Positions 46,191 to 62,643 are shown, counted from the first letter of the stretch. The stretch: 64,000 nt of DNA from an uncultured Myxococcota bacterium (GCA_965661985.1 CBFIFY010000003.1:29207-93206), one strand, 5' to 3'. The notes: generated from the sequence alone by a model not told the origin. Made by a program: numbers and translations.

Positions 46191-47657
46191 ATGTTGTCGA
46201 TTTTACTCACACTCACCGGTTGCATCAGTATAGACCCACCTGAGAACCCATTGGCCATCGACGATGACCGAGACGGTTACACCGAGTTTGAAGGGGACTG
46301 TAATGATCAAGACCCAAACACCTTCCCAGGTTCGGTGACGGAGGCGACATCGAATGAGTGTATGAAAGACGATGACGGTGATGGGTTTGGTGATGTGGAT
46401 GTGTCTGGGTACTTCGATGTGGGTACGGATTGCGATGACTCGAATCGGTTTATCTTTCCGGGTGCTGCAGAGAATGAGTCGGACAGTGAATGTTTGACCG
46501 ATGAAGATGAAGATGGTTGGATTGCAGAGTTAGGTGATTGTGACGATGGTGATGCTAGTACTGTTGATGACATGGATTGTGATGGTGTGTTGAGTGTGGA
46601 TGATTGTGACGATGGTGATTCGAGTATGCCGAACAATGATAATGATTGTGATGGTGTGTTGAGCGTAGATGATTGTGACGATGGTGATGCGAGTACGATT
46701 GATGACATGGATTGTGATGGTGTGTTGAGTGTAGATGATTGTGATGATGATGATTCAAGTTTATTGGAACAATCAAATGACTTGGATTGTGATGGTGTGT
46801 TGAGTGTGGATGATTGTGACGATGGTGATGCTAGTACTGTTTATGACATGGACTGTGATGGAGTATTGAGTGTAGATGATTGTGATGATGGTGATCCTCT
46901 TGTCATGGATCTTTGTATTGATATTGGAAGTCTGTCTTTTGAGGCGATGTTAATTTCAGCTGGTACCTTTACGATGGGTTGTACAAGTGAGCAGGGAACC
47001 AATTGCTACTCAAATGAGAGTCCGACACATCAAGTTACCTTGACTCAAAATTTTTATATGATGCAGACTGAAGTTACACAAGGGGTTTATGCACAAGTGA
47101 TGGGTAGTAATCCAAGTTCATTTTCTGGTTCGAACCGACCGGTTGAAAGTGTTTCTTGGTTGGATGCTATTCAATTTGCAAATGAATTGAGTGTTCAGCA
47201 AGGACTGTCTGAATGTTATGTTTTGAATGGAACCAACGTAAGTTGGTCGCAAACTGGTTGTACAGGCTGGAGGTTGCCAACAGAGGCAGAGTGGGAGTAT
47301 GCTGCAAGAGGTGGAGAAGTGTTTCAATACCCAGGAAGTAACAATCCCAGTGACGTTGCGTGGTACAACTCCAATAGTGGTTCTCAAACACACAATGTGT
47401 GTGTTTTACAGACCAACGGCTATGGTCTTTGCGATATGAGTGGTAATGTTTCGGAGTGGGTTTGGGATATTGCTGGATTGTATAGTGGTGCATCACTTGT
47501 AGATCCGAGAGGTGCATCGAGTGGTTGTTGCCGAGTATTAAGAGGTGCTGGTTATAATCGACCTGTAGATCATATGAGAGTTTCAAAGCGTGGAAACACT
47601 AGTGGATCGAATATTGCTTCTTATAGAGGTTTTCGTCTTTGTCGTAATCCCAACTAA
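46191..47657 (+). CDS. lipoprotein with tandem Asp/Cys-rich (MopE-like metal-binding) repeats and C-terminal FGE/SUMF1-fold domain
   Basis: Lipobox LTLTGC. Five units of DCDGVLSVDDCDDGDAST.DDM. The C-terminal blocks FTMGCT, PTHQVTL, SWLDAIQFAN, RLPTEAEWEYAARGG, GNVSEWVWD and RVLRGAGY, and the terminal FRLCRN, are FGE-sulfatase family blocks. Confidence 0.85.
   Translation: MLSILLTLTGCISIDPPENPLAIDDDRDGYTEFEGDCNDQDPNTFPGSVTEATSNECMKDDDGDGFGDVDVSGYFDVGTDCDDSNRFIFPGAAENESDSECLTDEDEDGWIAELGDCDDGDASTVDDMDCDGVLSVDDCDDGDSSMPNNDNDCDGVLSVDDCDDGDASTIDDMDCDGVLSVDDCDDDDSSLLEQSNDLDCDGVLSVDDCDDGDASTVYDMDCDGVLSVDDCDDGDPLVMDLCIDIGSLSFEAMLISAGTFTMGCTSEQGTNCYSNESPTHQVTLTQNFYMMQTEVTQGVYAQVMGSNPSSFSGSNRPVESVSWLDAIQFANELSVQQGLSECYVLNGTNVSWSQTGCTGWRLPTEAEWEYAARGGEVFQYPGSNNPSDVAWYNSNSGSQTHNVCVLQTNGYGLCDMSGNVSEWVWDIAGLYSGASLVDPRGASSGCCRVLRGAGYNRPVDHMRVSKRGNTSGSNIASYRGFRLCRNPN
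46536..46895 (+). repeat. in-frame tandem coding repeats (~66-75 bp units, about 5 copies)
   Basis: The protein reads DCDDGDASTVDDM-DCDGVLSVD-DCDDGDSSMPNNDN-DCDGVLSVD-DCDDGDASTIDDM-DCDGVLSVD-DCDDDDSSLLEQSNDL-DCDGVLSVD-DCDDGDASTVYDM-DCDGVLSVD-DCDDGD. The nucleotide units are near-identical. Confidence 0.9.
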
Positions 47658-47904: not shown

Positions 47905-49431
47905 TTAGTCGCCCGCCAGTTCACATCGATCGCCAACATCATCTCCATCGGCGTCGCTCTGGTAATCTTCAAAGATGCCAGTGTGGACAGGAGACAAAAT
48001 GAGGTCGGTGATCGGCTCCCCATTTTCTGTGAGGCGAAAGAACATGCCCCATCCACCACCGTTGTCGTGTACTTGGGTGAGGATGTAATTCCAACCGGCG
48101 TCGAGATTGGATGGGAAAGTGTATTTGTCTACACTGGCGCCTTGACAGGTTTGAGATTCTCCCACAAATGTGCCGTTGACCCAGACTCGACCTGCGTCGT
48201 CCGGACCAAACTTTACATCGACGCTTCGAGCATTGTCGCTGTAAACCCAGATGCCGGCAAACACGTTGCGCGCAGGAGAGAGGTCTTTGATTCCGATAAT
48301 TGTGTTGTAATCAATTCGACTGCCACCACTTTCATAGAGAGACCAATAAACGGTGTCTTCATTGTAATTGAGCAAGGTGTTGTACAGGGATGGAATGATG
48401 CTGGTTTCTGTGATTTCGTAGATGTTGTCGACGGTTTGACAGTTGCCTGTTTGTAGAGCGTTGACATTGTGGCCATCGGTCAGCACCCACGTTCGAAAGA
48501 AGCCGTCTTCATCGGGAGCGAATTCGATAGGACCGTTGTTGCTGTGCAACGGACAGTTGTCTTCTTCATCAATCAGTCCATCGTCATCATCGTCTTCGTC
48601 GCAGTTGTTGGCAAATGTGTCGCCGTCAACATCTTCGGTTTCGGTTAAGATTGGGTCTATCAAACTGCAACTGTCTGGCTGAATTTCCCATTCAAGGGTG
48701 TACTCTTCTACGGCTGTGCCGAATAGTCCCTGAAGGCAAAAGGTGGTTTCTGTCTCTGTGCTACTGGTCAAATATCGGGCACTGCTGTCGTTGATGGGTT
48801 CAATTGTGGGGCAACTGTCGTCGATGGGTAGATCGGACGCGACTTCAACTCCGTCTTCCAAAATGCTGATTCGCATGAGGTGAGAGCAAATTTCTTGGTC
48901 TGGGTTGACGGTGAATTCAATGTATTCATTCTCTTCAAAATCAAAGGTGTAGCAGTCTGTGTCTTGCTCCCACAACATCCCTCGAAGTGACCCACTGTCA
49001 GCCAACACCGTTGCCGTCAGATTGCTGTCGTTTGGTTCCATTTCAAACGTGCCATCTTCAACAGCGCAATCTTCGTCGCAACCATCAACGTTCCAGAGAT
49101 TGCTGTCGTCGCATTCCTCTGTGGAATCGAGTATGCCATCCCCACATTTGGGCAACAAACAGTCTGTGCGACAGGCATCTGCGACATTGGCGTTGTTCTC
49201 ACCGTCATCGCACTCTTCAAAGGGAGCGTTGACGATACCGTCTCCACATTCACCGACGATGTCCTCTGTGGGCTCAGCAGTATCTTCGCTTCCAGTATCC
49301 TCAGTGGCATCTGAAGTATCCGTGGTCACCGTGTCATTTTCTACATTGTCTTCTTTGGTATCACCACATGCACTGCTGAGTGAGAGCAGTAGGCTGAGTG
49401 CTGTCAAATTCATCCAAACAGGGGAAGCCAT
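47905..49431 (-). CDS. mosaic exported protein: two myxobacterial Cys-rich repeats, PPC-like domain, TSP3-like Asp repeats, C-terminal beta-sandwich
   Basis: Lipobox LSLSSAC. CGDGIVNAPFEECDDG and CGDGILDSTEECDD, then EMEPNDSNLTA (PPC-type), then DVDGDTFANNCDEDDDDDGLIDEEDNCP and DADGDDVGDRC. An alternative ATG at 49413 would form an ATGA overlap with the DUF1501 stop. Confidence 0.7.
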   Translation of the reverse strand: MASPVWMNLTALSLLLSLSSACGDTKEDNVENDTVTTDTSDATEDTGSEDTAEPTEDIVGECGDGIVNAPFEECDDGENNANVADACRTDCLLPKCGDGILDSTEECDDSNLWNVDGCDEDCAVEDGTFEMEPNDSNLTATVLADSGSLRGMLWEQDTDCYTFDFEENEYIEFTVNPDQEICSHLMRISILEDGVEVASDLPIDDSCPTIEPINDSSARYLTSSTETETTFCLQGLFGTAVEEYTLEWEIQPDSCSLIDPILTETEDVDGDTFANNCDEDDDDDGLIDEEDNCPLHSNNGPIEFAPDEDGFFRTWVLTDGHNVNALQTGNCQTVDNIYEITETSIIPSLYNTLLNYNEDTVYWSLYESGGSRIDYNTIIGIKDLSPARNVFAGIWVYSDNARSVDVKFGPDDAGRVWVNGTFVGESQTCQGASVDKYTFPSNLDAGWNYILTQVHDNGGGWGMFFRLTENGEPITDLILSPVHTGIFEDYQSDADGDDVGDRCELAGD

Positions 49432-50678
49432 TCGTCTACCTCAAATCCAGTGACAATCGGATGGTTGCTCAGACCGGCAATGTCTCTAAGGGCAGCGTGC
49501 ACATGCCCTGCAGTCAAAAATGTACCGTTGGGGTCAATTTCCAAGGTCTCTGGATTGACCGCCAGTGGCAGTTGATCCATGTCTGTGCCACCGATGACTC
49601 GACCACCTTGAATGTCAGAGCCCATGAACATCATTGAGCCAATGGACCAGTGATCTTTTCCATTGCCATCGTTGTAATACGGGGTGCGCGCAAAGTCAGA
49701 CCCAGCAATGACGTTGAATCGGTCTGCAATGCCCAATCGTTCGGCTTCTTGTCTGGCGAATGCCATGGCTTGTGCAACACGCAACAATCTAGGCGTGTGA
49801 TTGTTGTCGTGGTTGTTGTGGGTGTCAAACCCACCTATAGAGACGTTTGCGCTGACCGATACGCCTGCAGCAAAGCACGCCAAGGCAACTTGAATCTGAC
49901 GTTCCAGATCATCTTCGCGAAGTTCTGTCGGCATCGCCGCAACCAAGGATTGGAGTTCAGAATTGTCAGACTGCACCAATTCCAATACCTGTATGGAGTT
50001 GAGGGTTCGGGGCAAGTGGCTTTGACTTTGCACACGTCCCAGTCGGGCTGCGCGAGCCGCGTGAACCTTTTCTTGGACAGTGTTCGGCAAAAACAAGGAC
50101 TCGGGGTTGCTACTGTCTCGTCGATCTGGGTAGGCAAGGTCTTGCAACGTGTTGGTGCTGGGCAGACGGGTCACTGGCACAAGTCCATTGGTGCTGTCGT
50201 AGCCTCCGTTGCTGATGAAGGCCAGTGATGGCGCACTTTCTACTGCACCTGCAACCAACGCTGAAAATGCCGGTCTATTAGGATCTGTGTGTCCACTCCA
50301 CGTCGCACGCACACCTTGTTCGTGGCCATTGGTGCCAACGTCAATTCCGTTGATCACCAACAGTTCATTTTGAAACTCTGTGTAAAAATTTTCCAGTCCG
50401 TCGATTGGGGGAACCAAAAAGTTGCCCACTTCCAAAATTTCATCGGTGAAGTAGGTATTGATCGGTGCCACTTCAGTTTCGTTGGCTCGACCTTTGGGGT
50501 CACAAATCATGGTGGGGTCCCAGCCACCAGAGGCGTGGATGGTCAACCAAAAGGTACCGTTGTATCGGACTTGTTCTTGAGCATGGGCTTTTCGAATGGG
50601 AGACCATCCTGTGAGTGCCGACGGTACCAACAGTCCAGTTCCAGCAATGCGAAGGAAGCTTCTTCTTGAAAGGGTCAT
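49410..50678 (-). CDS. DUF1501 family protein, TAT-exported (second copy)
   Basis: Twin-arginine signal MTLSRRSFLRIAGTGLLV. Also SGGWDPT, GGFDTHNNHDNNH and SDFARTPYYNDGNGKDHW. Paralog of 16018-17289. Confidence 0.8.
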   Translation of the reverse strand: MTLSRRSFLRIAGTGLLVPSALTGWSPIRKAHAQEQVRYNGTFWLTIHASGGWDPTMICDPKGRANETEVAPINTYFTDEILEVGNFLVPPIDGLENFYTEFQNELLVINGIDVGTNGHEQGVRATWSGHTDPNRPAFSALVAGAVESAPSLAFISNGGYDSTNGLVPVTRLPSTNTLQDLAYPDRRDSSNPESLFLPNTVQEKVHAARAARLGRVQSQSHLPRTLNSIQVLELVQSDNSELQSLVAAMPTELREDDLERQIQVALACFAAGVSVSANVSIGGFDTHNNHDNNHTPRLLRVAQAMAFARQEAERLGIADRFNVIAGSDFARTPYYNDGNGKDHWSIGSMMFMGSDIQGGRVIGGTDMDQLPLAVNPETLEIDPNGTFLTAGHVHAALRDIAGLSNHPIVTGFEVDEWLPLFG

Positions 50679-50698: not shown

Positions 50699-53014
50699 TT
50701 ATTCAAACAAAAAGTTGTAATCGGAGAGCAAGTAGACCATCACCCCACGCCATGCGCGAATGGTGAAGTCAGGATCGATGGCCAGTTGAAGTTCGGAAGG
50801 GAGATCGGTTCCTGTAATTGGATCTTGGACTCCCCGACAGCTGTACGTCATATAGGTACTCACTTCATCGGCTTCAATGAGTGCCTTTCCTTCAGTGTGC
50901 AGTTCCAACCAGAGATCGTACACTGCCAATACCTCAGGATCGTTGAGGCGTAATTCTTGTCCCAGTACTCGATAGAATAGATACTGAATGTTTTGCTTCA
51001 TGCGCTCTTGAACTTCTGGAATGGCAAATCCATCTTCGGTGTACGGTTCGTAGGAACTTTCTACGTATGGAAAGAGTCGGCGTTGATTGATGGGCAGAAC
51101 AAAGTCGGCACTGGTGGCTTTGCAGGCTACAGTGTTTGCCATTCTGAGTGCCACAGCACCGATGACACCGTTTGGTTCTTTGAGGCGCTGAACCACATCG
51201 TCACTGTCAATACCACCGTAGAGCAGTTTGTAATCGTCCAACAAAAAGTCACTGTTGCGGTCACCCCATCGATAACCCGTGACGGCAATAATTTGCTGGT
51301 TCAGTTCTTCTGGGGTCAACAAGCGCGCCGTTCCAGCCATCATCAGTTCGGCTTCAGATGCATTTTCATGATCGACTGCGCGATAGAACTTGGACAGCAA
51401 CACCTCACGAATTGGGATTTTTACATCCCAGCCACTTTCCATAAATTCATTGCTGACACGGTTGAAGAAGGCGTCTTGTTGTCTCCACGCTTCGTATTCT
51501 ACAGAATCTGTAGACCACTCGTATCCACGGAGGACGTCCAGTCCAGTGAACGCGTGGAACACTTGCTCAACTGTGGAACGTGCAAATCTTGGATCTTCAT
51601 AGGTTCTTTCTGCCAGCCAGCGCAGTGCATTGCCACTTTCGGTGATGGAGATGGTTTCTCCAGCGAAACCAGGTTCGTACATTTCTGCAAACCAACCCGT
51701 CTCAGGTGGATTGTAATGCCCACTGTTGTCCCAGTTTTGAAACGCGCCAGCGACGGGTTCCATCACAGAGTGACAGACGTTGCACTGAGGATCGTTCATC
51801 GTGGGGTTGTGGATGGCTGAATTGTCTGCATCGATGGGTCGATCTGCCAAAGACAAAATGTTGGTGTTCAAAAAGTATTCATAGAATACTTTCGATCGAT
51901 GTCGATTTCGGTTGGTATCGGTGGTTGGATAGCGATTCATGAAGGCCACGGAACTCAACAGACCCACCTGTGGTTGTGCGTCAAAGTCAACTGGATAGAA
52001 AATGTCGCTCTGTGGGTCGTCTATGTCTGGCGTGACAAAACGGTCGTCGCTCACACCGTAGGACATGGCAGACCAAGAGTTCATCATCGTATAATCGGCA
52101 GTCAGAATCGTGCCCCAGTGTAGGTCTTCCATGAAGACGTGGCGCATCAGTTCCAACGGTTCTCTAGCGATGGAACTGTTGACTTTGGTACGGCGATTGT
52201 TGCCCGGGTCGTTGTTGATGCTGTACCAATAGAGATTGGGGAACTTGTCATAGTCCATGCTTTGGATGGCCGTTTGACCTTGCATGTACTTATCGGTCAG
52301 CAATAGGTCATTCCACAGTGTGACCAATCGATCGGAAATCAAGGATTTGGTGTTGTCTGGATAGCCAATCTCTGTTCCATCGAGCAATTCTGTGAGCACA
52401 CGTTTGAGACCTGGCTCTCCTTCTTGCTCAACTTTGGCAAGGTGAGAGGGGGATGGCAAGGTACCCAACAAGTTGAGGGTAACTTTTCTCAGCGTTTCTT
52501 TGGGCGTGGCCAGTACCAAATCACTGCTTTCCACGCGAACATTTTCATCCCCAGGACACTCTTCGACTGGGTTCTCCAAGCGATCCACAAAGCCAACCAG
52601 TGCACTGTATGCAGGGGAATCTTCGGTGATGACTCTGCCGCCACCGTGCCCATCGAGTCCCAAGGGTTTGCGCAGAACCAGTGGGATGTCGTCGATTTCC
52701 AGTCTGGCGACATAGTGCAGTTCAGCGCTGTTGGTCTCCAAATAGCCTGGAAGGACGTTGGATTGCAATACAAGGTCGCTGTGTTGAGCTGCCCCAGTAG
52801 AGTTGTGACAGGAATAGCACACTGGACTCAGTGCTTCTCCCCAGACTTTCTGTTCAAAATAATCGGCGTCATTGACACATCCGTCGATTTCTTCTTCTGT
52901 CAAGTCCCCGGTGTCTTCAGTCTCTTCAGAGACGTCAACAACCGTATCTTCATTGGAATCCGGTGTTTTGGGTTCGCCTTGGCAGGCCACTAACCAGAGT
53001 GCGATGGGCATCAT
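50699..53014 (-). CDS. multi-domain DUF1587/1592/1588-type di-haem lipoprotein (planctomycete PSCyt/PSD-like)
   Basis: ATG 53014 gives MMPIALWLVAC, which contains a lipobox. The N-terminal CYSCHNSTGA motif and the central DPQCNVCHSVMEPVAGAFQNW motif are both present. LTADYTMMNS and TDTNRNRHRS are collinear with ORF 17300-18934. Confidence 0.75.
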   Translation of the reverse strand: MMPIALWLVACQGEPKTPDSNEDTVVDVSEETEDTGDLTEEEIDGCVNDADYFEQKVWGEALSPVCYSCHNSTGAAQHSDLVLQSNVLPGYLETNSAELHYVARLEIDDIPLVLRKPLGLDGHGGGRVITEDSPAYSALVGFVDRLENPVEECPGDENVRVESSDLVLATPKETLRKVTLNLLGTLPSPSHLAKVEQEGEPGLKRVLTELLDGTEIGYPDNTKSLISDRLVTLWNDLLLTDKYMQGQTAIQSMDYDKFPNLYWYSINNDPGNNRRTKVNSSIAREPLELMRHVFMEDLHWGTILTADYTMMNSWSAMSYGVSDDRFVTPDIDDPQSDIFYPVDFDAQPQVGLLSSVAFMNRYPTTDTNRNRHRSKVFYEYFLNTNILSLADRPIDADNSAIHNPTMNDPQCNVCHSVMEPVAGAFQNWDNSGHYNPPETGWFAEMYEPGFAGETISITESGNALRWLAERTYEDPRFARSTVEQVFHAFTGLDVLRGYEWSTDSVEYEAWRQQDAFFNRVSNEFMESGWDVKIPIREVLLSKFYRAVDHENASEAELMMAGTARLLTPEELNQQIIAVTGYRWGDRNSDFLLDDYKLLYGGIDSDDVVQRLKEPNGVIGAVALRMANTVACKATSADFVLPINQRRLFPYVESSYEPYTEDGFAIPEVQERMKQNIQYLFYRVLGQELRLNDPEVLAVYDLWLELHTEGKALIEADEVSTYMTYSCRGVQDPITGTDLPSELQLAIDPDFTIRAWRGVMVYLLSDYNFLFE

Positions 53015-53163
53015 GTTTGTACCTTGGAAAAATGATCGTAACTCACAATTAGTATAACGTATGTCACATTGCTTTGTGGACAGGATCGACCATTTGAGAC
53101 AAATGTTGAATCCCACAATCAATAGTCTATGTAGAAGGCTATTTTTCAGTTGTCGCGTCTACG

Positions 53164-54210
53164 TCACTGTGGAATGGATTGATGTTGCGTCATGGCGTAT
53201 ACAACGTCGAAAGTTTGCTCTTTCAAGTCGAGGTGTGACAAAGTCGTGTAAGACTTTTCTCCCGTTTGTTCAGGGATTCTTGCTGTGTTTTGTCCCCATA
53301 CAATACAACCAAACCCCAAGACTTCATCGCTGTGACTCCAAATGCTGTATCGATGCAGTCCTTCATATTCAGACACCCTGTTGAGTTGTTGAAGAATGTT
53401 GGCTTGGCCTGTGATCCCAAATCCGATGGATGTACCGGGATAAAGACCATCCACCGCTGAGCAAGCTGGCGTCAAGGCACCATAGCAGGAACTCAGTCCT
53501 TGGTTTGCCCCCGCAATTCCCACAAACACATCCACAAATTCGGTCAAGGGTGGCCCCAACTGAACACTTTGATTGTTGGCATCTGTAAATGCACCGCCCA
53601 AGATGGCTTTTCGTGTCAGTGTGACACCCAAAGAGTACGATACAACATCTATTTTGGGTGCCTGTGTATAGTTCAAAACGGCTTCGATGAACTGTCGGAT
53701 GTGTTTGAGGGTATCTACATCGTGCCGGTACGTAGACATGAACAGAGGGTCCGCAGGTCCATAGGTTGTCGCATAGAGTTCTGCGTTGGAGAATCCGACC
53801 TCTATAAATCGTTGCCGTTGCTTTTCCCAGCCACCGAATGTCCCTCCGATGGCACGATCCCCATTTCCATGAACAAAAACGATGGGTTTGTGGGACAGTG
53901 AGTGTCGGTCTTCTAGAAAACCACCAAAACTTCCACCGCTCAAATCCAGTCGGGTGAGATCGGCATCGTACTCAGGGTGCTGCGATAGCCACTCTTGAAA
54001 GTGGACAGAGAGATGGTCATCGGTGTTGTTCACGATTTCACTCCCTGTATCTTCATGGATGTCCACATCTCCTGAGTCATCAATCGAAGTGGAGTCTTCG
54101 GTTTCTGTCGCTGAGTCACGTGGTGTGGATGCATCCCAAGTGGCATCGGTGTTGTTGGATTTCTCAGAGCATCCCAACCAAAACATTGATGTCAAAAACC
54201 ACAGTGTCAT
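53164..54210 (-). CDS. secreted lipase/esterase, class-2 (LipA/PGAP1-like) alpha/beta hydrolase
   Basis: Lipobox MFWLGC and an acidic linker. PIVFVHGNGD and IDVVSYSLGV align with Bacillus LipA PVVMVHGIGG and VDIVAHSMGG. Confidence 0.7.
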   Translation of the reverse strand: MTLWFLTSMFWLGCSEKSNNTDATWDASTPRDSATETEDSTSIDDSGDVDIHEDTGSEIVNNTDDHLSVHFQEWLSQHPEYDADLTRLDLSGGSFGGFLEDRHSLSHKPIVFVHGNGDRAIGGTFGGWEKQRQRFIEVGFSNAELYATTYGPADPLFMSTYRHDVDTLKHIRQFIEAVLNYTQAPKIDVVSYSLGVTLTRKAILGGAFTDANNQSVQLGPPLTEFVDVFVGIAGANQGLSSCYGALTPACSAVDGLYPGTSIGFGITGQANILQQLNRVSEYEGLHRYSIWSHSDEVLGFGCIVWGQNTARIPEQTGEKSYTTLSHLDLKEQTFDVVYAMTQHQSIPQ

Positions 54211-54331
54211 TCAACTCACTTCGTGCATGGTGTACCCATAGCATAGGGCGAATGTTGTGCAGACGCAATGCATCAAAGTGAGAAAGGTACTCAGATCAAA
54301 CGCTTTGCAACTGTTTGGAAATGTTGAAGCC

Positions 54332-55267
54332 TTATGGACTGTTCTTTGTTTTTTTCGTTTCCGTTGTTTTCGTCATTTCCTTCGTTTGCTTTCCCTTTTT
54401 CTGTTGGCTGTGCTTGACGTCCACTCTGTAATTGGGAGAATCTTTGACATCGTATTGAGAGAGGCTGCGTCCGGTTGCTTCGCTGAGCAAGAGTCGCACA
54501 TTTTCAGCAAACAGTTTTGGGTTCTCTACCTCATCCTTGGAGGGTGTATAGGTGGGTAAAAAACGGATTGTCACCGGTGTATAGAGTCGACCCAGGATTC
54601 GGTAAATTTGGACACCAAAAGTCGATTCTTCACGGTTCCAAAACGGGGTGTACTCAGGAAAAGTAAAGGCGATGGGCGTGACGGGATGACCAGGGACAAA
54701 AGCCCCAGATTTGAACTGCAGAACATGTTTGCCGTTGGAATACGTCCCTTCTGGAAAGATGACGTGTTTGTAGACACCTTCATCCAAACTTTGCTTCAAT
54801 TGTTCGATCAGGCTCGGCCCTTTGCCCTTGTCTTTGCCTCGTGTGACATAGAGTGGATTGAGCGAGTGGGTGAACTTGTTGAAAATCGGCATGCGCTTTG
54901 TAAACTCAGCCGCCATCGGACGAAAGTGCCCCAGTTTGTAGAGTAGAACAAGGCTTTCAAACAGACAGGTGTGGGTGGACACAAAGAGTTTAGCATCGAG
55001 AGACTTGGGGTCGTCGATGATTGTGGTGACGGGCATTCGAATGCTGATCAGCAGACACTTGTTGCAAAAACTCGAAGACCAGTCTTTCCACTTTAATGAA
55101 ATGTAGGGAAAGAGCGGAATGAACACCAACCCTGTGAGCAAACCAAGTGCCAAAAAGACAATTGTCACGGGCAGGAAAATGATAAAAATGGGCAGTGTTT
55201 TCCACAATGGTTCCGGTGGCTCAACACTGAAGGGATCATCGATGGTATGGTTTGCAGTATCAGACAC
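54332..55267 (-). CDS. lysophospholipid acyltransferase (PlsC/LPLAT superfamily, LPCAT-like) with Lys-rich tail
   Basis: TM segment at the N-terminus. Motif I is the variant HTCLFE (H-x4-E), motif III is IFPEGTYSNG, and motif IV is SGAFVPGHPVTPIAF (compare LPCAT1 GAFIPGAPVQPV). The C-terminus is KHSQQKKGKQTKEMTKTTETKKTKNSP. Confidence 0.78.
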   Translation of the reverse strand: MSDTANHTIDDPFSVEPPEPLWKTLPIFIIFLPVTIVFLALGLLTGLVFIPLFPYISLKWKDWSSSFCNKCLLISIRMPVTTIIDDPKSLDAKLFVSTHTCLFESLVLLYKLGHFRPMAAEFTKRMPIFNKFTHSLNPLYVTRGKDKGKGPSLIEQLKQSLDEGVYKHVIFPEGTYSNGKHVLQFKSGAFVPGHPVTPIAFTFPEYTPFWNREESTFGVQIYRILGRLYTPVTIRFLPTYTPSKDEVENPKLFAENVRLLLSEATGRSLSQYDVKDSPNYRVDVKHSQQKKGKQTKEMTKTTETKKTKNSP

Positions 55268-55351
55268 GTAAGACTCTCTATCAATGGTGTTTTGATCAAT
55301 ATATTGAATGCGGTGACTGGTGAACAGTGTACTTTGCTACACGTTGTGGGA

Positions 55352-55984
55352 TTATTGCCACCCTTGTACATATGTGTCCAAAGGGACATCGCCTTTGGAT
55401 GCGCGGTTGATTAGGCTGGTGATGCTTTTGTGTGGCCAGTCGGCTTGGATGCTGTTTACAGCCCAGTCTGGCAAGGCACCTTCTGGATCGGTTTTGACTT
55501 CGACAACAATTTTGGTTTGACCATTGTCGGCAACAGAAAACTGCCAAAAAGTTCGCTCTCCTTTCGCCCGTACAAAGTCTGGACTGATGGGGACCTTTGG
55601 ACTGGTGACCGAAGACAAGTGTACCGTTGCCGTTTTGGACGCGTCATCGTAGACAATTTTCTTGTCAAAGACGTAATCTCTGTCAGAAACTGGCCAAGGC
55701 AGATCATAGCCTTGATGCAACAATGAATGGTTTTCGGAATACTGCTCAACCACTTTACCAAACATCATCATGTCAACCCATTCTGGACCAATGGACTCAT
55801 CTCGCAATACACCCATGAACTGAGCAATCGAGATCGAAGATGTCGCTTCTCCTTTGAAGGCGTAGAGACCGGTTCCCGATTCTTGTTTTCGATATACGGC
55901 AACATCGTTTGTGACACCCAAACTCGTCCACTCTTCTGCCATCACGCTGTTGATACACAGCAACCACGCTCCAATCCATCCCAT
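55352..55984 (-). CDS. START (StAR-related lipid-transfer) domain protein, exported
   Basis: Signal-like N-terminus. Also VAVYRK...YAFKGEA, SIGPEWVDMM, LPWPVSDRDYVF, VRAKGERTFWQF and DPEGALPDWAVN, the START blocks in order. Confidence 0.78.
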   Translation of the reverse strand: MGWIGAWLLCINSVMAEEWTSLGVTNDVAVYRKQESGTGLYAFKGEATSSISIAQFMGVLRDESIGPEWVDMMMFGKVVEQYSENHSLLHQGYDLPWPVSDRDYVFDKKIVYDDASKTATVHLSSVTSPKVPISPDFVRAKGERTFWQFSVADNGQTKIVVEVKTDPEGALPDWAVNSIQADWPHKSITSLINRASKGDVPLDTYVQGWQ

Positions 55985-56060
55985 AATACACTCCTTTTGA
56001 TTGTGAACAGTGTATCACACAGAACAAATGGATGTGCAGAACCGTTCCTTCATACGCAAG

Positions 56061-57266
56061 TCACCGTTGGTCGGGTGCATCTTTCCAATTGATCGCATTG
56101 AGCCGCTTCGCTTGATGCCGCAGAAGTTCATTGTCAGACGACAGCGCCTCTTGTACAAAGATGGCATTGCGAGGACGTAGGCGCGCAGAGGCTTCCAACA
56201 GGGCCAAGTTCCAGTTGAGTTCGCTTTGGTTTTCACAATACAAGCGATGGCTGTTGCCCAAAAAAGAAATCTTATGACACTTTGGCGGTATAGACACAGA
56301 GACCCACAAATCACTCTCCAAGTCCATGCCACGAGGATGCTCGCGTTTTGTACACGGTTTCGAAGACCACTGTTTTGCCCTGTTTGACCAATTGCTCAAA
56401 TATTGAACAGGGTTTTCACACCATCGAAGCGTTTCTACGGCATATTGGTTTTGCCAGTGTCCAATTAAGAAATGTGGTGTGTCATCGGTGAATTGTTGCC
56501 CCTGTTCGTACAAGGTTTGTACACTTTTGGCATAGAAGTGCTCTAGGAGATCTTGCTCAAACCCTTCGGTCAGTCTGTCACTTTGTAAGAGTGCTGTGGA
56601 AACTTTCGCATACCAGTCTGCATCGGATGTGTGTGGTGCGCTGTCTTTGGCGAGGGTGGTCACGAGGTGCATCCAACAAGATTTTTGAAATTGGTCGCTG
56701 AACTTGCAGACGGTCAGTCCTTGTTCAAGTGTGTCGATGGATGAAGGCAAGGACTCGGCAAGGGTGAAAAAGCACTCTGCTTGCCAAGTACGGTTCTCGA
56801 TGTGTCGACACGCGTCGATGGCCAACGCCACATCTTCCTGTCCATCGGCGACTGCCTGTGCGGTCCAACAGGTGTTGGGGTGTGGGTCCAAGGTGCAATC
56901 ACGCTCTGTGATGGGTTCGCTATTTTGGATTTGGTCGAAGTGGTTGATTTGGTCTTTCCACAAATGGGGGCGTTCGGTCAATCGGTGACAACGGTCTCGT
57001 CCAAGTGAAGTAGACAGGAATGCACAAAGGTCTTTACTGCGCCTTGGGTATTGTTCTACCGTTTCCAAGATGAGGACATCCCTTTGAACTTGCTCTAAAT
57101 TTTGCACATAACGCTTGGCTTGTACTGGACTGTTCTGTGCCAGATTGATCAACGCTTCACTCGAGTGTTTGGTTTCTGTTTCAAGAGTCGACGGTGTTGA
57201 AAGTGGATCGCAACCACCAAATAGAAACAGTGTGTACAGAACTGTTTGAAAGAACGATTGACGCAT
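56061..57266 (-). CDS. hypothetical Cys-rich helical lipoprotein
   Basis: Lipobox LFLFGGC, 401 aa, many conserved-looking Cys/Trp residues. No family recognised. Confidence 0.6.
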   Translation of the reverse strand: MRQSFFQTVLYTLFLFGGCDPLSTPSTLETETKHSSEALINLAQNSPVQAKRYVQNLEQVQRDVLILETVEQYPRRSKDLCAFLSTSLGRDRCHRLTERPHLWKDQINHFDQIQNSEPITERDCTLDPHPNTCWTAQAVADGQEDVALAIDACRHIENRTWQAECFFTLAESLPSSIDTLEQGLTVCKFSDQFQKSCWMHLVTTLAKDSAPHTSDADWYAKVSTALLQSDRLTEGFEQDLLEHFYAKSVQTLYEQGQQFTDDTPHFLIGHWQNQYAVETLRWCENPVQYLSNWSNRAKQWSSKPCTKREHPRGMDLESDLWVSVSIPPKCHKISFLGNSHRLYCENQSELNWNLALLEASARLRPRNAIFVQEALSSDNELLRHQAKRLNAINWKDAPDQR

Positions 57267-57293: not shown

Positions 57294-57323
57294 ATGATAG
57301 CGTTCCTCCTCATGGCTTGTCAA
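57294..57323 (-). promoter_or_regulatory. putative divergent sigma70-type promoter for gene 56061-57266
   Basis: The minus strand reads TTGACA (57323-57318), 18-nt spacer, TATCAT (57299-57294). The -10 element is the reverse complement of the ATG-containing hexamer of the plus-strand gene. Confidence 0.35.
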
Positions 57324-59090
57324 CAAGAGTTTACCGACGTATCCTACACGGAAGCAGAGTTGATTCCCGCTTTTGAGCACGGGAACTCAGGGTGGGCTGG
57401 GGTCGCGCTGCTGGACTATGATGGTGATGGTTGGTTGGACATTTTCTTCACCAACGGCCTAAGTCAAGCGGATGCACTTTATCAAAACCAAGGGAATGGA
57501 CAATTCTTGAATGTTGCAGCCGAGGTTGGGTTGGATTCTACGGCTCAACACGGTGGAGTGGCCTCAGCAGATTTGGACAATGATGGAGACCCCGATTTGG
57601 TGATCGTGCGAGACTGTACCTTGGGCACCTTACAAGAAGATGGGACGGCTTTGCGCGACGGTGGTGTTGAGGTTGCGTGGAATGAAGATGGCACATTCGT
57701 TTTTGAAATGCTGACTTTTAAAGAGCAAGCGGCCGAACTTGGCATTTGTCCAGTGAGTGTGGAATTGGTTGATACCAACGGGGATGGGTGGCTCGACATT
57801 TCAGTGTCCAATGGATTGGATTTGGATCAGGTGTACCCTTGGATCTATCGAAAGGAGACCCGAGAAGGGGTGGATGTGATTTTGCTTTCGGATCAAGAAG
57901 GTGGGTTTGAACAAAGGGTGCTGTTGGAACCTACACCTGTGGGCGATGTGCTCAATCCCGATGAGTATGAATTTCAGTTTGCGACGTTTACATCAGCGTT
58001 TATGGATATCAATTTTGATGGTCTGTTGGACAAAATATCTGGCTATGGTGGTGGACCACTTGGCATTCACTTACAAGTAGAAGAGAACGTGTTTCAACCG
58101 GTACCAGAATGGACGACCAGTGTCCAAGGACTGTGGATGGGGCTTGCGCTGGCAGACTTTGATGGGGATGGAGACATCGACATATACAGTACCAACCAAG
58201 GATTGTCTCCACTTTTGACGGGATATGACAACATTCCAGAACCTTTTGAAGGAGAGACCTTCTCCGAAGCATGGATCGATCGAAATGTTAGACCCTTTCA
58301 CACAATATTTGAAAATGATCGTGGGTTCTTCAGCGAACGAAATGCCGATGTTCAAGCAGAGCATTTGTTGTCAGGCGATTTGTTTGATGGTGTCCCAACA
58401 GCAGATGGATACAAGTATCAAGGCTGGTTGAATCCAGAAGGACTGGATCGATACGGTTGGGCTTGGGGGGCGACGACCATTGATATCGATGCCGACGGTT
58501 GGATGGACGTTGTATTCAATGCCAACAATTGTGCTGCACCAATGACAATCGTTGGAGACGAGAGTGCAGGGGCTGGTCCAGGTTCGGTGTTGCGAAACAA
58601 TGTGGGCAACGGTTTTCAAGATGTGACTTGGAAATGGGGTTTGGCAAACGTCATGAACGATGGAACCTATCCAGATGGCAGAGGGGTGGCAGTTGGAGAT
58701 TTGAATAACGACGGCTATTCTGACATCGTCTATGCAAATCGAACCTTCAATCCCTCTCAGTCGTCGCCCTTGGATCAGCAACCCGGCATTCCCAAAATTT
58801 TGCTGTCTGAAGGTCAACCGGGGAATTGGTTGCAAATTGATTTGGTGGGTTCACAGAGCAACCGTGACGGGATTGGTTCATACATCCGAATTCAAAATGG
58901 CGATCGTACCCAGTTCTATCTTTTTGAACCTGGGGGTACGACCAACTCAAGCAATGAACGGTTGTTTACTGTGGGGGTTGGAAGTGCTAGAAAAGTTGAT
59001 GTCGCGGTTTTGTTTCCGTCTGGAAAACAGATACGATTAAACAGTGTAGACAGCAATCAGCGCATTGTGATTGAGGAGAATAGAGAATGA
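57294..59090 (+). CDS. CRTAC1-family lipoprotein (FG-GAP/VCBS repeats + ASPIC/UnbV domain), second copy
   Basis: Lipobox FLLMAC. DYDGDGWLDI, DLDNDGDPDL, DTNGDGWLDI, DFDGDGDIDI, DIDADGWMDV and DLNNDGYSDI. C-terminal NRDGIGSYIRI...VGVGS...VLFPSG. Confidence 0.85.
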   Translation: MIAFLLMACQQEFTDVSYTEAELIPAFEHGNSGWAGVALLDYDGDGWLDIFFTNGLSQADALYQNQGNGQFLNVAAEVGLDSTAQHGGVASADLDNDGDPDLVIVRDCTLGTLQEDGTALRDGGVEVAWNEDGTFVFEMLTFKEQAAELGICPVSVELVDTNGDGWLDISVSNGLDLDQVYPWIYRKETREGVDVILLSDQEGGFEQRVLLEPTPVGDVLNPDEYEFQFATFTSAFMDINFDGLLDKISGYGGGPLGIHLQVEENVFQPVPEWTTSVQGLWMGLALADFDGDGDIDIYSTNQGLSPLLTGYDNIPEPFEGETFSEAWIDRNVRPFHTIFENDRGFFSERNADVQAEHLLSGDLFDGVPTADGYKYQGWLNPEGLDRYGWAWGATTIDIDADGWMDVVFNANNCAAPMTIVGDESAGAGPGSVLRNNVGNGFQDVTWKWGLANVMNDGTYPDGRGVAVGDLNNDGYSDIVYANRTFNPSQSSPLDQQPGIPKILLSEGQPGNWLQIDLVGSQSNRDGIGSYIRIQNGDRTQFYLFEPGGTTNSSNERLFTVGVGSARKVDVAVLFPSGKQIRLNSVDSNQRIVIEENRE

Positions 59091-60505
59091 AATCCTATGT
59101 TCAAATGATTGGTGTGCTCACTTTAATGGCTTGTGAAACCGTAGAGACTGAAACGGCCCAACCACTTGAAAACTCCGAATGGAAAGATACGATCACCACG
59201 AAAGATGTGGGTGCAGACGTTGTTTTTTCGACAGCCAAAGAGTGTGGTGAGTGTCACCCTTCGCATCTCCAAGATTGGGAACAGTCGATGCATGCCTACG
59301 CTGCCCATTCGCCTGTATTTGATGCGATGGCACAAAAAGCCTTTCGAGATTCAGCTGGAGAAGTCGGTACATTTTGTACGAGTTGTCACTCTCCCATTGG
59401 TGCGATTCAAGGGGAAGATGGTACGGTGACGGCAAAGGACCGTTCAGAAATCTCACGGGATTCGGTTTCTTGTGAAGTGTGTCATTCGGCGGTCGATCAT
59501 TCTACGCCAGTTGGAAATTTATCACTGGAACTGACAGCAACCGGTGAGATTATGGGACCGTATGAGAGTGACTTTACCGAAGGTCATGAAAGTGTGCAGA
59601 GTGATTTCGTTCAATCTGCTGAATTGTGTGGTTCTTGTCACGATGTATTCAATTATCCCGGACTGCGAATTGAAGAGGCTTTTACAGAGTACTCAACTTC
59701 TCCCGCCAAAAATATGGGGCTGACCTGTCAGGATTGTCATATGGGAACCGTTCCTGGAGCAGTGTCTCAACGTGATGTTGGTCCGATAGCCGTTGTTGAA
59801 GGTCGTACCTATCCAGACAGAGCGCGCTCTTCGCATCGATTTATTGGTCCCGATTATTCTTTGCTGGATACATTTCCATACCCAGACGACATCGAGAAAT
59901 CTCGTCAAGCACAAGAAGAGATGTTTGCTCAAATTGAGGTGCTGTTGAAAAATGCGGTTGAAGTATCGGAGGTGCAAATAGATCGCTCTGGTGTCGAAAC
60001 GACCGTGCAGGTCACATTGCAATCCTTGACATCTGGCCACAATGTTCCGACAGGCTTTACATCCGAGCGTCAGTTGTGGTTGGATGTGATCGTCAAGAAT
60101 GCTGTCGGCACAGTCTTGTTTTCCAGTGGTCAGTTGGATGGGAATGGAGACCTTTACGATGAACATTCTTGGGAAGTGGCTGCAGATTCGACCAAACTGG
60201 ATACACAGTTGGTCAATCTTCAGTCCAAAAATAAGATGCGCTATGGTGAGTTGGAGTTGCCAAATGCAACAGAGACCGTCTTTCCATTTGATGCCGATTA
60301 CATTGAAAAGCATTCGTTGAGACCTTTGGAAACAAGAACGGTATCCTATACCTTGCCTGCATCTATTGGTCAGCAAACCATTCACGTTGAAGTTGCTTTG
60401 CGCTATCGAAACCTGCCGCCCTACATTCTACGGGCTTTACAACTGGACGATTTGGTAGATCGACTGCAAGTGTTTACCATTGATGAAACTGCGATAGAAG
60501 GATGA
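59087..60505 (+). CDS. penta-haem c-type cytochrome lipoprotein
   Basis: Lipobox LTLMAC. Five CxxCH motifs: CGECH, CTSCH, CEVCH, CGSCH, CQDCH. ATGA start/stop overlap with the CRTAC1-like gene. Confidence 0.85.
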   Translation: MKSYVQMIGVLTLMACETVETETAQPLENSEWKDTITTKDVGADVVFSTAKECGECHPSHLQDWEQSMHAYAAHSPVFDAMAQKAFRDSAGEVGTFCTSCHSPIGAIQGEDGTVTAKDRSEISRDSVSCEVCHSAVDHSTPVGNLSLELTATGEIMGPYESDFTEGHESVQSDFVQSAELCGSCHDVFNYPGLRIEEAFTEYSTSPAKNMGLTCQDCHMGTVPGAVSQRDVGPIAVVEGRTYPDRARSSHRFIGPDYSLLDTFPYPDDIEKSRQAQEEMFAQIEVLLKNAVEVSEVQIDRSGVETTVQVTLQSLTSGHNVPTGFTSERQLWLDVIVKNAVGTVLFSSGQLDGNGDLYDEHSWEVAADSTKLDTQLVNLQSKNKMRYGELELPNATETVFPFDADYIEKHSLRPLETRTVSYTLPASIGQQTIHVEVALRYRNLPPYILRALQLDDLVDRLQVFTIDETAIEG

Positions 60506-60606: not shown

Positions 60607-61473
60607 ATGATGTGGTGGATTTGGGCGTGTGCAACGGAGCCTGCAGACACCAGCGTTGAATCGTATGCCGTTCCAGAACTTCAAGAAAATGGGTGCGGTA
60701 CAGGTCAAGGTTCGGGCTTGCCAATTGGTGACATAGAATGCAACAATGGACGATGTACCATTGCCCCTGGAGAGTTTTGGATGGGATCGTCAGACGTTGA
60801 TGCAGAGTGTCCCGTGCGAAAAGTTGAACTGTCAGAGTTTCAAATTGATCAATATGAGGTCACTTTGTCCGAATGGCAACGGTGTGTCGATCAAGGACGG
60901 TGTGCTTCTTTGCCGGCACATTGTCTCAATACGTTGTACAGCAGACCTGATTACAGCGTTGATTTTCCAGCCATTTGCGTCACTTGGTCTCAAGCCAACA
61001 ATTATTGTCGTGGCATAGGTGGTCGTTTACCGACAGAGGCAGAGTGGGAAAAAGCCGCTTCTGGAACGGAAGGTGCCAAGTGGGCGTGGGGAGCTTCTGC
61101 GCCTGACTGTGACGATGCCAACTTTCGCTTGGCCAGCATCTATTGCTCTCCAGGGGTTCGATCTGTTGGGTGGTATACTCAAAGTGTCTCTCCCTTTGGG
61201 TTGTATGATGTCAATGGCAATGTTTTTGAGTGGACAGCCGATTGGTATGATGCCACCTTTTATGAAGCGGCTACAAATATCAATCCCATCAAAGAATCTG
61301 GTTTGTGCGTTTCTAGTGTGGGTGCTGAACCTCAGGACTGTGGAGAGCGAGTCTTGCGCGGTGGAGCTTACAACGCGACAGAATCGACAATTCGAAATGC
61401 AGCTCGAAGTTTCGCGGACCCAACGTTGGTGGATGTGAACATTGGTTTTCGCTGTGCCTACGATGGCAATTGA
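60607..61473 (+). CDS. FGE/SUMF1-fold (formylglycine-generating enzyme family) lipoprotein
   Basis: Lipobox WIWAC. FWMGSS, PVRKVELSEFQIDQYEVT, RLPTEAEWEKAASG, GNVFEWTADWY, RVLRGGAY and FRCAY. No C-x4-C catalytic pair near the C-terminus. Confidence 0.85.
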   Translation: MMWWIWACATEPADTSVESYAVPELQENGCGTGQGSGLPIGDIECNNGRCTIAPGEFWMGSSDVDAECPVRKVELSEFQIDQYEVTLSEWQRCVDQGRCASLPAHCLNTLYSRPDYSVDFPAICVTWSQANNYCRGIGGRLPTEAEWEKAASGTEGAKWAWGASAPDCDDANFRLASIYCSPGVRSVGWYTQSVSPFGLYDVNGNVFEWTADWYDATFYEAATNINPIKESGLCVSSVGAEPQDCGERVLRGGAYNATESTIRNAARSFADPTLVDVNIGFRCAYDGN

Positions 61474-61527: not shown

Positions 61528-62643
61528 TCAATTCAACATTCGTTTCTGTTGAAGCGTTTGAAAAATATGGGTGGCTTTCATCTTTTCGCCCGTTTGATCA
61601 ACGTGGACTTCATCGACGAAGTGCACTTCATCCATCGAAGACATCAATTGATGCAGAGGCACACTGTTCCATTTTTCTGCTCTCGCCAGTTCCATTACAC
61701 GCTGGTTTTGTATTGCGATCATTGGGCCCCATTGGTTTGCACTATTGGTGTCGCCTTGTGAGTCGTTCCCTTTTCGATAGGGCAATGTTGCAAACAGCAC
61801 TTTGCTACCAATACTTGTTGCAACCGTACCAATCGTTCGAAGGTTGCGAGTAAAGGTTTTGGAATGTTGATCCGTTTCTGCTCTGCGCACCAAGCCTTCT
61901 TTGGGAGGGTGGATGCTCAAGTTGTGCAACGTGTACATAGAAGGTGTGGGACCGGAGACTTGAATCTTGATCCAAGTATACAATTGACTGGTGTACACGC
62001 CCCAAGAGTCTAGGAAAAATGTCAAATTTGTTTGCACCACCATCCTTCCCAGTTCATCTTTGGTCAAGGCGATGGGTTTTCGAAAGTGTGCATAGTCCGG
62101 TCTAAAGTCTTTGCGCATTAGGGGGTCGAGATCATTGACGGCATGGTGAACAATGACGATGTCGGGTTGAAAAGACTGTCCCAACGTGGTGAATGCCACC
62201 ATACTTTCGGCACTGGTCCATCCACCCGTACCAAAGTTTAAGATTTCAATGGTTTTGTTTGAGTTGTGCTCTTGGAGCAGTTCTCCCAGATGAAAGGGCC
62301 AAGCCTCAGGTCCTGCCGTGGTCGAGCCTCCCAGCGTCAGGATGCGCAGGGTTTGTGGGCTTCTTGACAGAGAGATGTCGTCAGAAAATGTAAAGCCCCA
62401 TTCGTTGATTTCAGGTAAATCAGGAGAAAATGTGTAGACCATATACGGGTGCGGCGCCATTTCAATGGTGGGGTCCAATTCAGGACTGTTCAATTCTTGA
62501 TAGTCTATGATTTGGGTTCGGGTGTCTGGTGCGGCAAGTATGACAAGGCGAAAGAGGAGTTCGAACGATGTCAGTCCCAATAGTAATAGACCCAATGTGA
62601 ACAGATACTTTTTCCAACGTGGTGACAGGTTTCGTGTAGACAT
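61528..62643 (-). CDS. membrane-anchored SGNH/GDSL-like hydrolase
   Basis: N-terminal TM segment. Block I-like ILTLGGSTTAG, NFGTGGW, VIVHHAVNDL, and block V DEVH near the C-terminus. Confidence 0.65.
   Translation of the reverse strand: MSTRNLSPRWKKYLFTLGLLLLGLTSFELLFRLVILAAPDTRTQIIDYQELNSPELDPTIEMAPHPYMVYTFSPDLPEINEWGFTFSDDISLSRSPQTLRILTLGGSTTAGPEAWPFHLGELLQEHNSNKTIEILNFGTGGWTSAESMVAFTTLGQSFQPDIVIVHHAVNDLDPLMRKDFRPDYAHFRKPIALTKDELGRMVVQTNLTFFLDSWGVYTSQLYTWIKIQVSGPTPSMYTLHNLSIHPPKEGLVRRAETDQHSKTFTRNLRTIGTVATSIGSKVLFATLPYRKGNDSQGDTNSANQWGPMIAIQNQRVMELARAEKWNSVPLHQLMSSMDEVHFVDEVHVDQTGEKMKATHIFQTLQQKRMLN

Follow-up and report, generated by a model that had tools for sequence, protein, structure and literature searches.

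In a 64,000-nucleotide stretch of DNA from an uncultured Myxococcota bacterium (GCA_965661985.1 CBFIFY010000003.1:29207-93206; hereafter the window, whose positions serve as coordinates throughout), four minus-strand genes between positions 53164 and 57266 encode, from upstream to downstream, a cysteine-rich orphan lipoprotein, a START-domain protein, an LPCAT-like acyltransferase and a class-2 lipase. With somewhat more than even confidence, we read this arrangement as a string that is specific to its lineage and consists of four envelope and lipid genes, each evolving separately, in an uncultured marine Myxococcota genome, and not as the conserved, dedicated pathway that an initial annotation of this DNA had proposed. 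The string itself, a local arrangement of known domain families in one uncultured clade, is of modest importance. Its notable part is not a conserved pathway but a eukaryote-like bacterial clade of LPCAT-type enzymes, to which the acyltransferase belongs.

All four minus-strand open reading frames (ORFs) have exactly the limits given in the initial annotation, and the motifs that it quoted (VFVHGNGD, VVSYSLGV, IFPEGTYSNG, SGAFVPGHPVTPIAF, PWPVSDRDYVF and DPEGALPDWAVN) are all found in the translations. The genes are separated by gaps of 76, 84 and 121 bp. Because each has homologues, from tens to hundreds per gene, and synteny of the string extends to five other assemblies, the ORFs are real genes and not chance ones. 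Their GC content, GC content at third codon positions (GC3) and codon usage lie within the spread of the 31 other genes of the window, so that nothing suggests a recent foreign origin, and on this match to the background we rejected recent horizontal transfer of the four genes. A scan with promoter and terminator consensus patterns returned 12 promoter-like sites, where shuffled sequence gives 7.8, and 8 terminator-like sites, where it gives 8.7. The four genes may be co-transcribed in this clade.

The evidence against a dedicated pathway comes from relatives, which we sorted by the identity of their acyltransferases into groups at ≥76%, 61–62%, 45–47% and 40–43%. In the closest group (L001, L009, L010, L011, L023 and L024), gene order is the same across the whole neighbourhood, which starts upstream with the cytochrome and FG-GAP genes and runs down to the DUF1501 gene, and it therefore says nothing specific about the four genes. 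Within this group only L009, L010 and L024 have an intact string; L011 and L023 end before the position of the lipase, and L001 keeps lipase residues 201–347 only, so that the nucleophile is gone. At 61–62% identity (L014 and L015), the order becomes START, M48-type metallopeptidase, acyltransferase, PSD-type gene and DUF1501 gene, with no lipase. The inserted M48-like gene (L014:974–1696 and L015:1–372), in which an HE motif is visible before the residues become masked, ends 1 bp before the acyltransferase start in L015 and has no counterpart in the window. At 45–47% (L016/L017 and L018/L019), the acyltransferase follows an S-adenosylmethionine (SAM) methyltransferase, the two methyltransferases not being orthologous, and at 40–43% (L002–L008 and L013) its neighbours are an RlpA-like gene on one side and a TPR gene on the other. 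In none of the four contexts at 40–47% identity does a START or lipase gene stand beside the acyltransferase.

The methyltransferases of the 45–47% group are of class I and lie directly upstream of the acyltransferase in the same direction, at gaps of 33–72 bp (L016:418–1236, L017:1823–2641, L018:4907–5788 and L019:1435–2316). One resembles the mycobacterial lipid O-methyltransferases Mtf2 and phthiotriol methyltransferase (218 bits) and the other is generic or PEAMT-like; there may be a recurrent link of this acyltransferase to lipid methylation.

Viewed from the START gene, the picture is the same. A metagenome scan for START relatives returned 80 loci, and the acyltransferase was present in only the two at 73–74% identity. 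The 78 others are at ≤53% identity, and 39 of them, with at least 1.5 kb of downstream sequence, are informative: neither the acyltransferase nor a Lipase_2 gene was found in any of these 39 by hidden Markov models (HMMs) to which every family member scores above 440 bits. Near one START relative, at a distance of 2.6 kb and beyond two genes on the opposite strand, lies an acyltransferase of another kind, which is YihG-like. A conserved START partner was sought and rejected, the neighbours being heterogeneous (PfkB-like kinase, enoyl-CoA hydratase, MaoC, AAA and DsbA). In other marine lineages (L037–L057 and L027), the exported START gene is flanked by genes of fatty-acid metabolism: an enoyl-CoA hydratase gene lies upstream on the opposite strand in 10 loci and a MaoC-like dehydratase gene directly upstream in L027. 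A convergent ORF of around 650 aa with a PfkB domain follows START in 19 loci.

Co-conservation of the genes where the surrounding synteny is lost, the mark of a conserved cluster or dedicated operon, was not observed. Instead, the pairing vanishes exactly where general synteny does, so that nothing points to selection for clustering. The lipase comes and goes independently. Lack of co-conservation, which the initial annotation had named as grounds for refuting its proposal, is thus seen beyond the immediate clade, where the lipase is absent or truncated, the M48 gene is inserted and the deeper relatives are unpaired.

Turning to the individual proteins, sequence comparison shows the acyltransferase to be a member of a small family in bacteria that is most closely related to the eukaryotic LPCAT/LPEAT enzymes of the AGPAT superfamily and is by sequence a new bacterial branch of the LPCAT/LPEAT type. 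The protein matches PF01553 with an E value of 1.4e-10 and 41.5 bits (Pfam gathering cut-off 23); with the NCBIfam AGP_acyltrn model it stays at 36 bits, below the cut-off of 103. A word-index search found 41 relatives at 40–99% identity, all unnamed or labelled Myxococcota, and the first named matches after this family were animal LPCAT2-like proteins (70–78 bits), which together with protist transcripts span 55–78 bits. Because such a search is biased by shared words, we also ran a profile of the 27-sequence family alignment (A1) exhaustively against 1.84 billion representatives. Around ten family representatives came first, followed by matches at 119–149 bits. These nearest outsiders have a median length of 455 aa; a canonical EF-hand loop, as scored by a PROSITE-style regular expression, is present in 35 of the 141. 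All that could be named are eukaryotic: Anopheles, Orchesella, Flectonema, Rhodosorus, Raphidocelis, two Anaeramoeba species, Pharyngomonas, Acrasis (annotated 'LPEAT') and Caligus. One unnamed outsider cluster lies on a contig of low gene density with ARC6 and protein kinase genes, which looks algal. By comparison, the Thermotoga PlsC (5kym) reached 20.4 bits with the single acyltransferase sequence and 34.5 bits with the family profile, and the YihG-like PF01553 protein of the START-bearing bacterial contig gave no match to the profile at E ≤ 1. The likeness to LPCATs also runs past the Pfam domain into a C-terminal block, LP(T/V)YxPSxEE..DPxLYAxNVR (consensus of A1 and of the eukaryotic LPCAT-like set A4). 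The profile scores of 119–149 bits to LPCAT/LPEAT proteins against 34.5 bits to PlsC, together with this shared block, confirm at the level of sequence the annotation of the enzyme as LPCAT-like rather than PlsC-like, as do its HMM match and its named eukaryotic neighbours.

The motifs agree with this placement. In A1, the histidine of motif I is invariant and the glutamate nearly so. This HX4E form occurs in 36 of the 37 family members scored; among the 141 nearest outsiders, 103 have HX4D and 16 have HX4E. It is probably a conservative variant of the catalytic HX4D motif, and with it the protein carries motif I of the LPLAT/AGPAT enzymes. We considered HX4E as a marker of the closest eukaryotic subgroup and rejected it, as it is scattered among eukaryotes and hence uninformative. 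Motif III, FPEGT, is nearly invariant in A4, and two motifs in A1, WNREES and DSPNY, are specific to the family. The C-terminal EF-hand region that marks LPCAT1/2 and some LPEATs is not present in the family, whose proteins end around 20–40 residues past the domain in A1; short protist and algal LPCAT-like proteins likewise do without it. The 19-residue Kyte–Doolittle windows exceed 1.6 at start positions 20–41 and mark a predicted membrane anchor; the acidic N terminus and the Lys-rich flank after the anchor suggest that the catalytic domain is cytoplasmic. The Lys-rich tail reported in the initial annotation is real and can be read in the sequence, and in A1 a long tail of this kind is confined to this genome and its nearest relative. 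Other members stop shortly after the conserved DSPNY motif, many with short K-rich ends. Many C termini in A1 (for example P0014, P0016, P0021 and P0022, with ends such as ...DRNKKKS, ...DKKKKS and ...DRKKKK) fit the pattern KKXX. Such tails resemble the endoplasmic reticulum (ER) retrieval signals of eukaryotic membrane proteins, and they may simply be cytoplasmic basic tails.

The known distribution of the family is narrow. A pattern scan of GTDB species representatives found relatives in 5 loci only, all in metagenome-assembled genomes (MAGs), of which three bear the label Myxococcota and two that of 'uncultured proteobacterium'. Further homologues stem from metagenome assemblies, including several Tara or marine ones, and one accession belongs to a Tara Oceans run. 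An exact-match look-up of the acyltransferase sequence returned no record, and in the literature that we searched we found no description of a bacterial LPCAT/LPEAT-type acyltransferase family. A separate metagenomic protein, P0233 (633 aa, called histidinol-phosphate aminotransferase by JGI), has an LPCAT-like domain at residues 362–632 (177 bits) and is either a fusion or a merged gene call. The initial annotation had suggested phylogeny as a check for horizontal transfer. A neighbour-joining (NJ) tree of 172 LPCAT-like sequences recovered the family, which grouped with P0231 in 187 of 200 bootstraps, and placed it without support near short protist and algal LPCAT-like proteins; the sister group was not resolved. 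The tree is unrooted and gives no direction for any transfer.

The START protein matches PF01852 with an E value of 3.6e-13 and 49.8 bits, against a gathering cut-off of 22; the three domain assignments, START, acyltransferase and Lipase_2, all pass their Pfam cut-offs. An AlphaFold 2 (AF2) model built from 20 sequences of the START family reached a mean predicted local distance difference test (pLDDT) score of 89.9, and the best 50 Foldseek matches of this model in the PDB are all STARD-type, with E values down to 6.5e-14; at the top (E 1e-12 to 1e-14) stand STARD10, the Xanthomonas START protein 3qsz, STARD5 and STARD4. The family profile scored 3qsz at 73.8 bits, PC-TP at 65.2, STARD10 at 55 and CERT at 38, and the sterol carriers StAR and STARD4 at around 20. 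As PC-TP, STARD10 and CERT rank above StAR and STARD4, the protein is a true START domain of the phospholipid/ceramide-type subgroup. The model predicts a classic STARD helix-grip fold, and the profile scores place the protein nearest to the phospholipid type. The sequence has no special affinity for eukaryotic proteins, its best solved relative being bacterial (3qsz, from Xanthomonas axonopodis).

Export of the START protein is almost certain, as judged from the family pattern. Nearly all full-length members have a short hydrophobic N terminus that ends in A-x-A and is followed by a conserved (G/E/D)(E/D)W; the A-x-A end directly precedes the first strand. The 3qsz crystal construct is described as 'fragment 25-204', and the omission of its first 24 residues fits an exported protein. 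The annotation of an exported START-domain protein is therefore borne out by HMM, fold match and the signal-peptide pattern. The exact protein sequence was matched on a single 1.2-kb contig, and signal-peptide-bearing STARD-type proteins are widespread in marine metagenomes, 118 loci having been confirmed in one scan. The text of a 2026 review of bacterial START proteins contains no 'signal peptide' and no Myxococcota, acyltransferases or lipases.

The residues with which PC-TP forms its choline cage and binds phosphate (Tyr72, Trp101, Tyr155, Arg78 and Asp82) correspond in the alignment with this START protein to Leu, Gln, Glu, Gly and Val, respectively. Because the residues that hold phosphocholine in PC-TP are not conserved, neither specificity for phosphatidylcholine nor any other head group can be deduced. 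For the same reason we rejected a phosphatidylcholine theme uniting a PC-TP-like START protein, an LPCAT-like enzyme and the neighbouring methyltransferases of relatives; furthermore, these two methyltransferases are not orthologous, and one of them is like lipid O-methyltransferases such as Mtf2 and not like PmtA.

The lipase matches Lipase_2 (PF01674) with an E value of 3.3e-58 and 197 bits (cut-off 20.3) across positions 2–216 of the 219-position model, and the PDB entries of PhaZ7 (1.4e-7) and Bacillus subtilis LipA (7e-3). Of 119 homologues, at least 118 conserve Ser193, Asp295 and His326; Cys242 and Cys250 vary hardly or not at all, and position 192, a Tyr here, is His in 113 of the 119. 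Most homologues have a lipobox signal peptide followed by a D/E/S/T-rich linker. By sequence, the protein is thus a serine hydrolase of lipoprotein type whose Ser-Asp-His triad is intact; the earlier call of a secreted class-2 lipase agrees with the Lipase_2 score and with the export signal in homologues. It belongs to an ordinary, widespread bacterial family and is not eukaryote-like: more than 200 bacterial homologues at E < 1e-60 include proteins of Pyxidicoccus (a cultured member of the Myxococcaceae), Cellvibrionaceae and Pyrinomonadaceae. A database copy, P0109 (NCBI, Logan), is 340 aa long and starts at Met9 (MFWLGC...), so that hardly any signal peptide would precede the lipobox Cys; a start further upstream, at the ATG at 54210, yields a more plausible lipoprotein signal.

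The 401-aa orphan has no match in Pfam, NCBIfam or the PDB, and a profile of five orthologues found nothing in the PDB even at E ≤ 10. A single-sequence AF2 model had a pLDDT of 46.6 and was unusable. The alignment of the orphan (A3) has 13 invariant cysteines, namely that of the lipobox and 12 more, which points to a disulfide-rich predicted lipoprotein; its earlier description as a Cys-rich orphan lipoprotein therefore stands. Its orthologues (L001, L009, L010, L011, L023 and L024) share 43–74% identity, compared with 76–87% for the acyltransferase, and of the four genes it evolves fastest.

How could these proteins relate to one another? The acyltransferase would be an inner-membrane enzyme, its active site facing the cytoplasm, and would re-acylate a lysoglycerolipid from acyl-CoA or acyl-ACP, a step of the Lands-cycle type; the START protein would carry a two-chain polar lipid in the periplasm; and the lipase, tethered to the envelope, would act beyond the cytoplasm to deacylate ester lipids. 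Loose cooperation of the genes is possible in this clade, with deacylation outside, carriage through the periplasm and re-acylation inside. The initial annotation had gone further, to a dedicated pathway that could remodel phospholipids or sterol-like lipids or scavenge them from prey or host. Spelled out as a trans-envelope module, this would have the tethered lipase deacylate glycerolipids of prey, of particles or of the cell's own envelope and the periplasmic START protein ferry the resulting lyso- or diacyl-lipid towards the LPCAT-like enzyme of the inner membrane for re-acylation, with the Cys-rich lipoprotein as an accessory. Such a module fits the predicted compartments, which match a relay from periplasm to cytoplasm, and the nearness of the START protein to the phospholipid-binding PC-TP, STARD10 and CERT rather than to the sterol subgroup. 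It also fits the gene arrangement, with short gaps that fall to around 40–110 bp in relatives. The same arrangement weighs against our own reading of four separately evolving genes: the four run in one direction only 76–121 bp apart; on the minus strand the consensus scan, whose counts are close to those of shuffled sequence, placed no terminator-like site between them; START and acyltransferase stay less than 1 kb apart, and so still neighbours, down to around 62–67% identity despite other gains and losses; and that three of the four genes are lipid-related by pure coincidence is unlikely. Furthermore, the metagenome contigs are short and redundant, and a partner that is absent within 1.5–10 kb may still occur elsewhere in the genome. 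The module is nonetheless improbable in our estimate, as the lipase is dispensable (absent in L014/L015 and cut before the catalytic Ser in L001), START and acyltransferase are separated there by an unrelated M48 peptidase gene in the L014/L015 lineage, and the pairing is lost at every depth at which general synteny is lost. Inherited synteny of a block of exported-protein genes explains the gene order equally well, and that the four are independent genes within such a block is the account that we moderately favour. A real functional coupling of START and acyltransferase is doubtful, if slightly less so than the full module, and it is more doubtful still that the lipase would belong to it.

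If the string is probably a product of descent, the acyltransferase still calls for an explanation of its eukaryotic likeness, and the family is a candidate for transfer in either direction. In one, the acyltransferase, and perhaps the START gene, was captured from a eukaryote by an ancestor of the marine Myxococcota clade and has since evolved as an ordinary bacterial membrane enzyme. All identified outside relatives being eukaryotic (animals, Euglenozoa, red and green algae, Anaeramoeba and Heterolobosea), the very narrow bacterial distribution of 5 MAG species and the KKXX-like Lys-rich C termini of many members, reminiscent of ER retrieval signals, would agree with such a capture. It would, however, have to be old, given 40% identity within bacteria and several unrelated bacterial contexts; the gene has native composition, the family is about equidistant from all eukaryotic groups with no sister group resolved by NJ, the unrooted tree gives no direction, and the best solved relative of START, like the lipase, is bacterial. 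We regard this capture as possible but on the unlikely side. In the opposite direction, the Myxococcota family or its ancestors would be the source lineage of the eukaryotic ER acyltransferases of the GPAT3/4–LPCAT group. A 2025 study in Nature inferred a bacterial origin for GPAT3/4 and LPCAT1/2/4, an alphaproteobacterial source lacking compelling support (PMC12872463), and myxobacteria have been proposed as donors of plasmalogen genes, including that of the PF01553 enzyme GNPAT (PMC13012113). Both proposals are in line with a bacterial source, as is the standing of this family as the sole bacterial one near LPCATs among identifiable matches. Its narrow distribution in Myxococcota fits acquisition better than ancestry, and the NJ placement near short protist and algal LPCAT-like proteins lacks support in an unrooted tree. 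That the marine Myxococcota clade holds the only identifiable prokaryotic close relatives of eukaryotic ER LPCAT/LPEAT enzymes and is a candidate donor of them is a long shot, and so is the source-lineage scenario as a whole. Were it true, with the family falling outside the GPAT3/4–LPCAT duplication that preceded the last eukaryotic common ancestor, Myxococcota would be the donor of eukaryotic endomembrane Lands-cycle and glycerolipid acyltransferases, adding to the sterol, plasmalogen and ACSL cases, and an acyltransferase beside an exported START carrier could represent an early coupling of lipid remodelling to lipid transfer. The family thus bears on which bacteria supplied the phospholipid acyltransferases of the eukaryotic ER. 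The description of the whole string as eukaryote-like holds for the acyltransferase, with its eukaryotic neighbours, and is not supported for the lipase, which is bacterial, or for START, whose best solved relative is from Xanthomonas.

The surroundings of the string are listed with its features in the table below. The PSD/PSCyt-type and DUF1501 genes are each syntenic in L001, L009, L010, L014, L015 and L024, and L001 and L009 also keep the FG-GAP/ASPIC–cytochrome pair. On both sides the region is bordered by FGE-sulfatase genes, the second at 60607–61473. Between 44000 and 48000, GC content drops to 0.42–0.45 and GC skew changes sign, going from about −0.15 to +0.2..+0.43; the minimum of cumulative skew lies near 43.5–44 kb. 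This segment could have been acquired or inverted.

Table. Features of the four-gene string and its surroundings in the window.
Feature	Position	Strand	Description	Basis
Orphan lipoprotein gene	56061–57266	−	401 aa, Cys-rich, no family matched	ORF
Putative lipobox cysteine, Cys19 codon (LFGG-C)	57210–57212	−	Invariant in A3	Read from sequence
START gene	55352–55984	−	210 aa, exported lipid-binding domain (predicted)	ORF and Pfam
Predicted Sec signal peptide of START, residues 1–16	55937–55984	−	MGWIGAWLLCINSVMA	Family pattern
Acyltransferase gene	54332–55267	−	311 aa, GTG start, membrane, PF01553	ORF and Pfam
N-terminal hydrophobic membrane anchor, residues ~24–56	55100–55198	−		Kyte–Doolittle
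Motif I, His99-x4-Glu104 (HTCLFE)	54956–54973	−	HX4E variant of HX4D	Alignment A1
Motif III, FPEGT, residues 171–175	54743–54757	−	Invariant in A1	Alignment A1
Lys-rich C-terminal tail of acyltransferase	54332–54415	−		Read from sequence
Lipase gene	53164–54210	−	348 aa, lipoprotein class-2 lipase/esterase (predicted), acidic low-complexity linker	ORF and Pfam
Catalytic Ser193 codon of lipase (S-Y-S-L-G)	53632–53634	−	Ser in 119/119 homologues	
PSD/PSCyt-type (DUF1553/1588/1592) lipoprotein gene	50699–53122	−	Next downstream of lipase, co-directional	Pfam matches near cut-offs
DUF1501 gene	49410–50678	−	Co-directional, usual partner of PSD-type protein	Pfam 8.9e-20
DUF4215 gene	47905–49431	−	Continues co-directional run beyond DUF1501 gene	
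FGE-sulfatase-domain gene	46191–47657	+	488 aa, in low-GC segment	
YhgA-like Transposase_31 gene	44792–45835	−	In low-GC segment	
FG-GAP/ASPIC lipoprotein and multihaem c-type cytochrome genes	57294–60505	+	4-bp overlap, divergent from string	
GDSL-like second lipase-type gene	61528–62643	−	4 kb upstream of string	Pfam 9e-9

Among known systems, the functional analogue of the proposed module is the lysophospholipid salvage of Escherichia coli by LplT and Aas. The concept, by analogy, would be shared: lysophospholipids derived from the envelope are re-acylated at the inner membrane. The string differs in having no LplT homology, and no flippase gene is recognizable among the four genes or the annotated neighbours on either side. 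With B. subtilis LipA and Paucimonas lemoignei PhaZ7, the lipase shares a minimal alpha/beta hydrolase, the Ser-Asp-His triad and the HGNGD oxyanion region; it differs from them in its lipoprotein signal peptide, its acidic linker of around 90 residues, its conserved Cys pair and its nucleophile context, S-Y-S-L-G in place of A-H-S-M-G. The START protein has in common with 3qsz, human PC-TP (STARD2) and STARD10 a single helix-grip domain of around 200 aa, with TM-scores of 0.75–0.88 and 55–74 bits.

For the acyltransferase, bacterial PlsC (Thermotoga maritima, 5kym) is of the same superfamily and has the same catalytic motifs, but the likeness amounts to only 20–35 bits and is limited to the core domain. 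The eukaryotic LPCAT1/2/4 and LPEAT enzymes share with it the N-terminal membrane anchor, the His-x4-acid, FPEGT and PV(T/Q)P motifs and the post-domain block LPxYxPSxEE..DPxLYAxNVR; relative to them, the Myxococcota family is shorter (around 290–310 aa), lacks the EF-hand region, and is set apart by HX4E, by WNREES/DSPNY and by its bacterial gene contexts.

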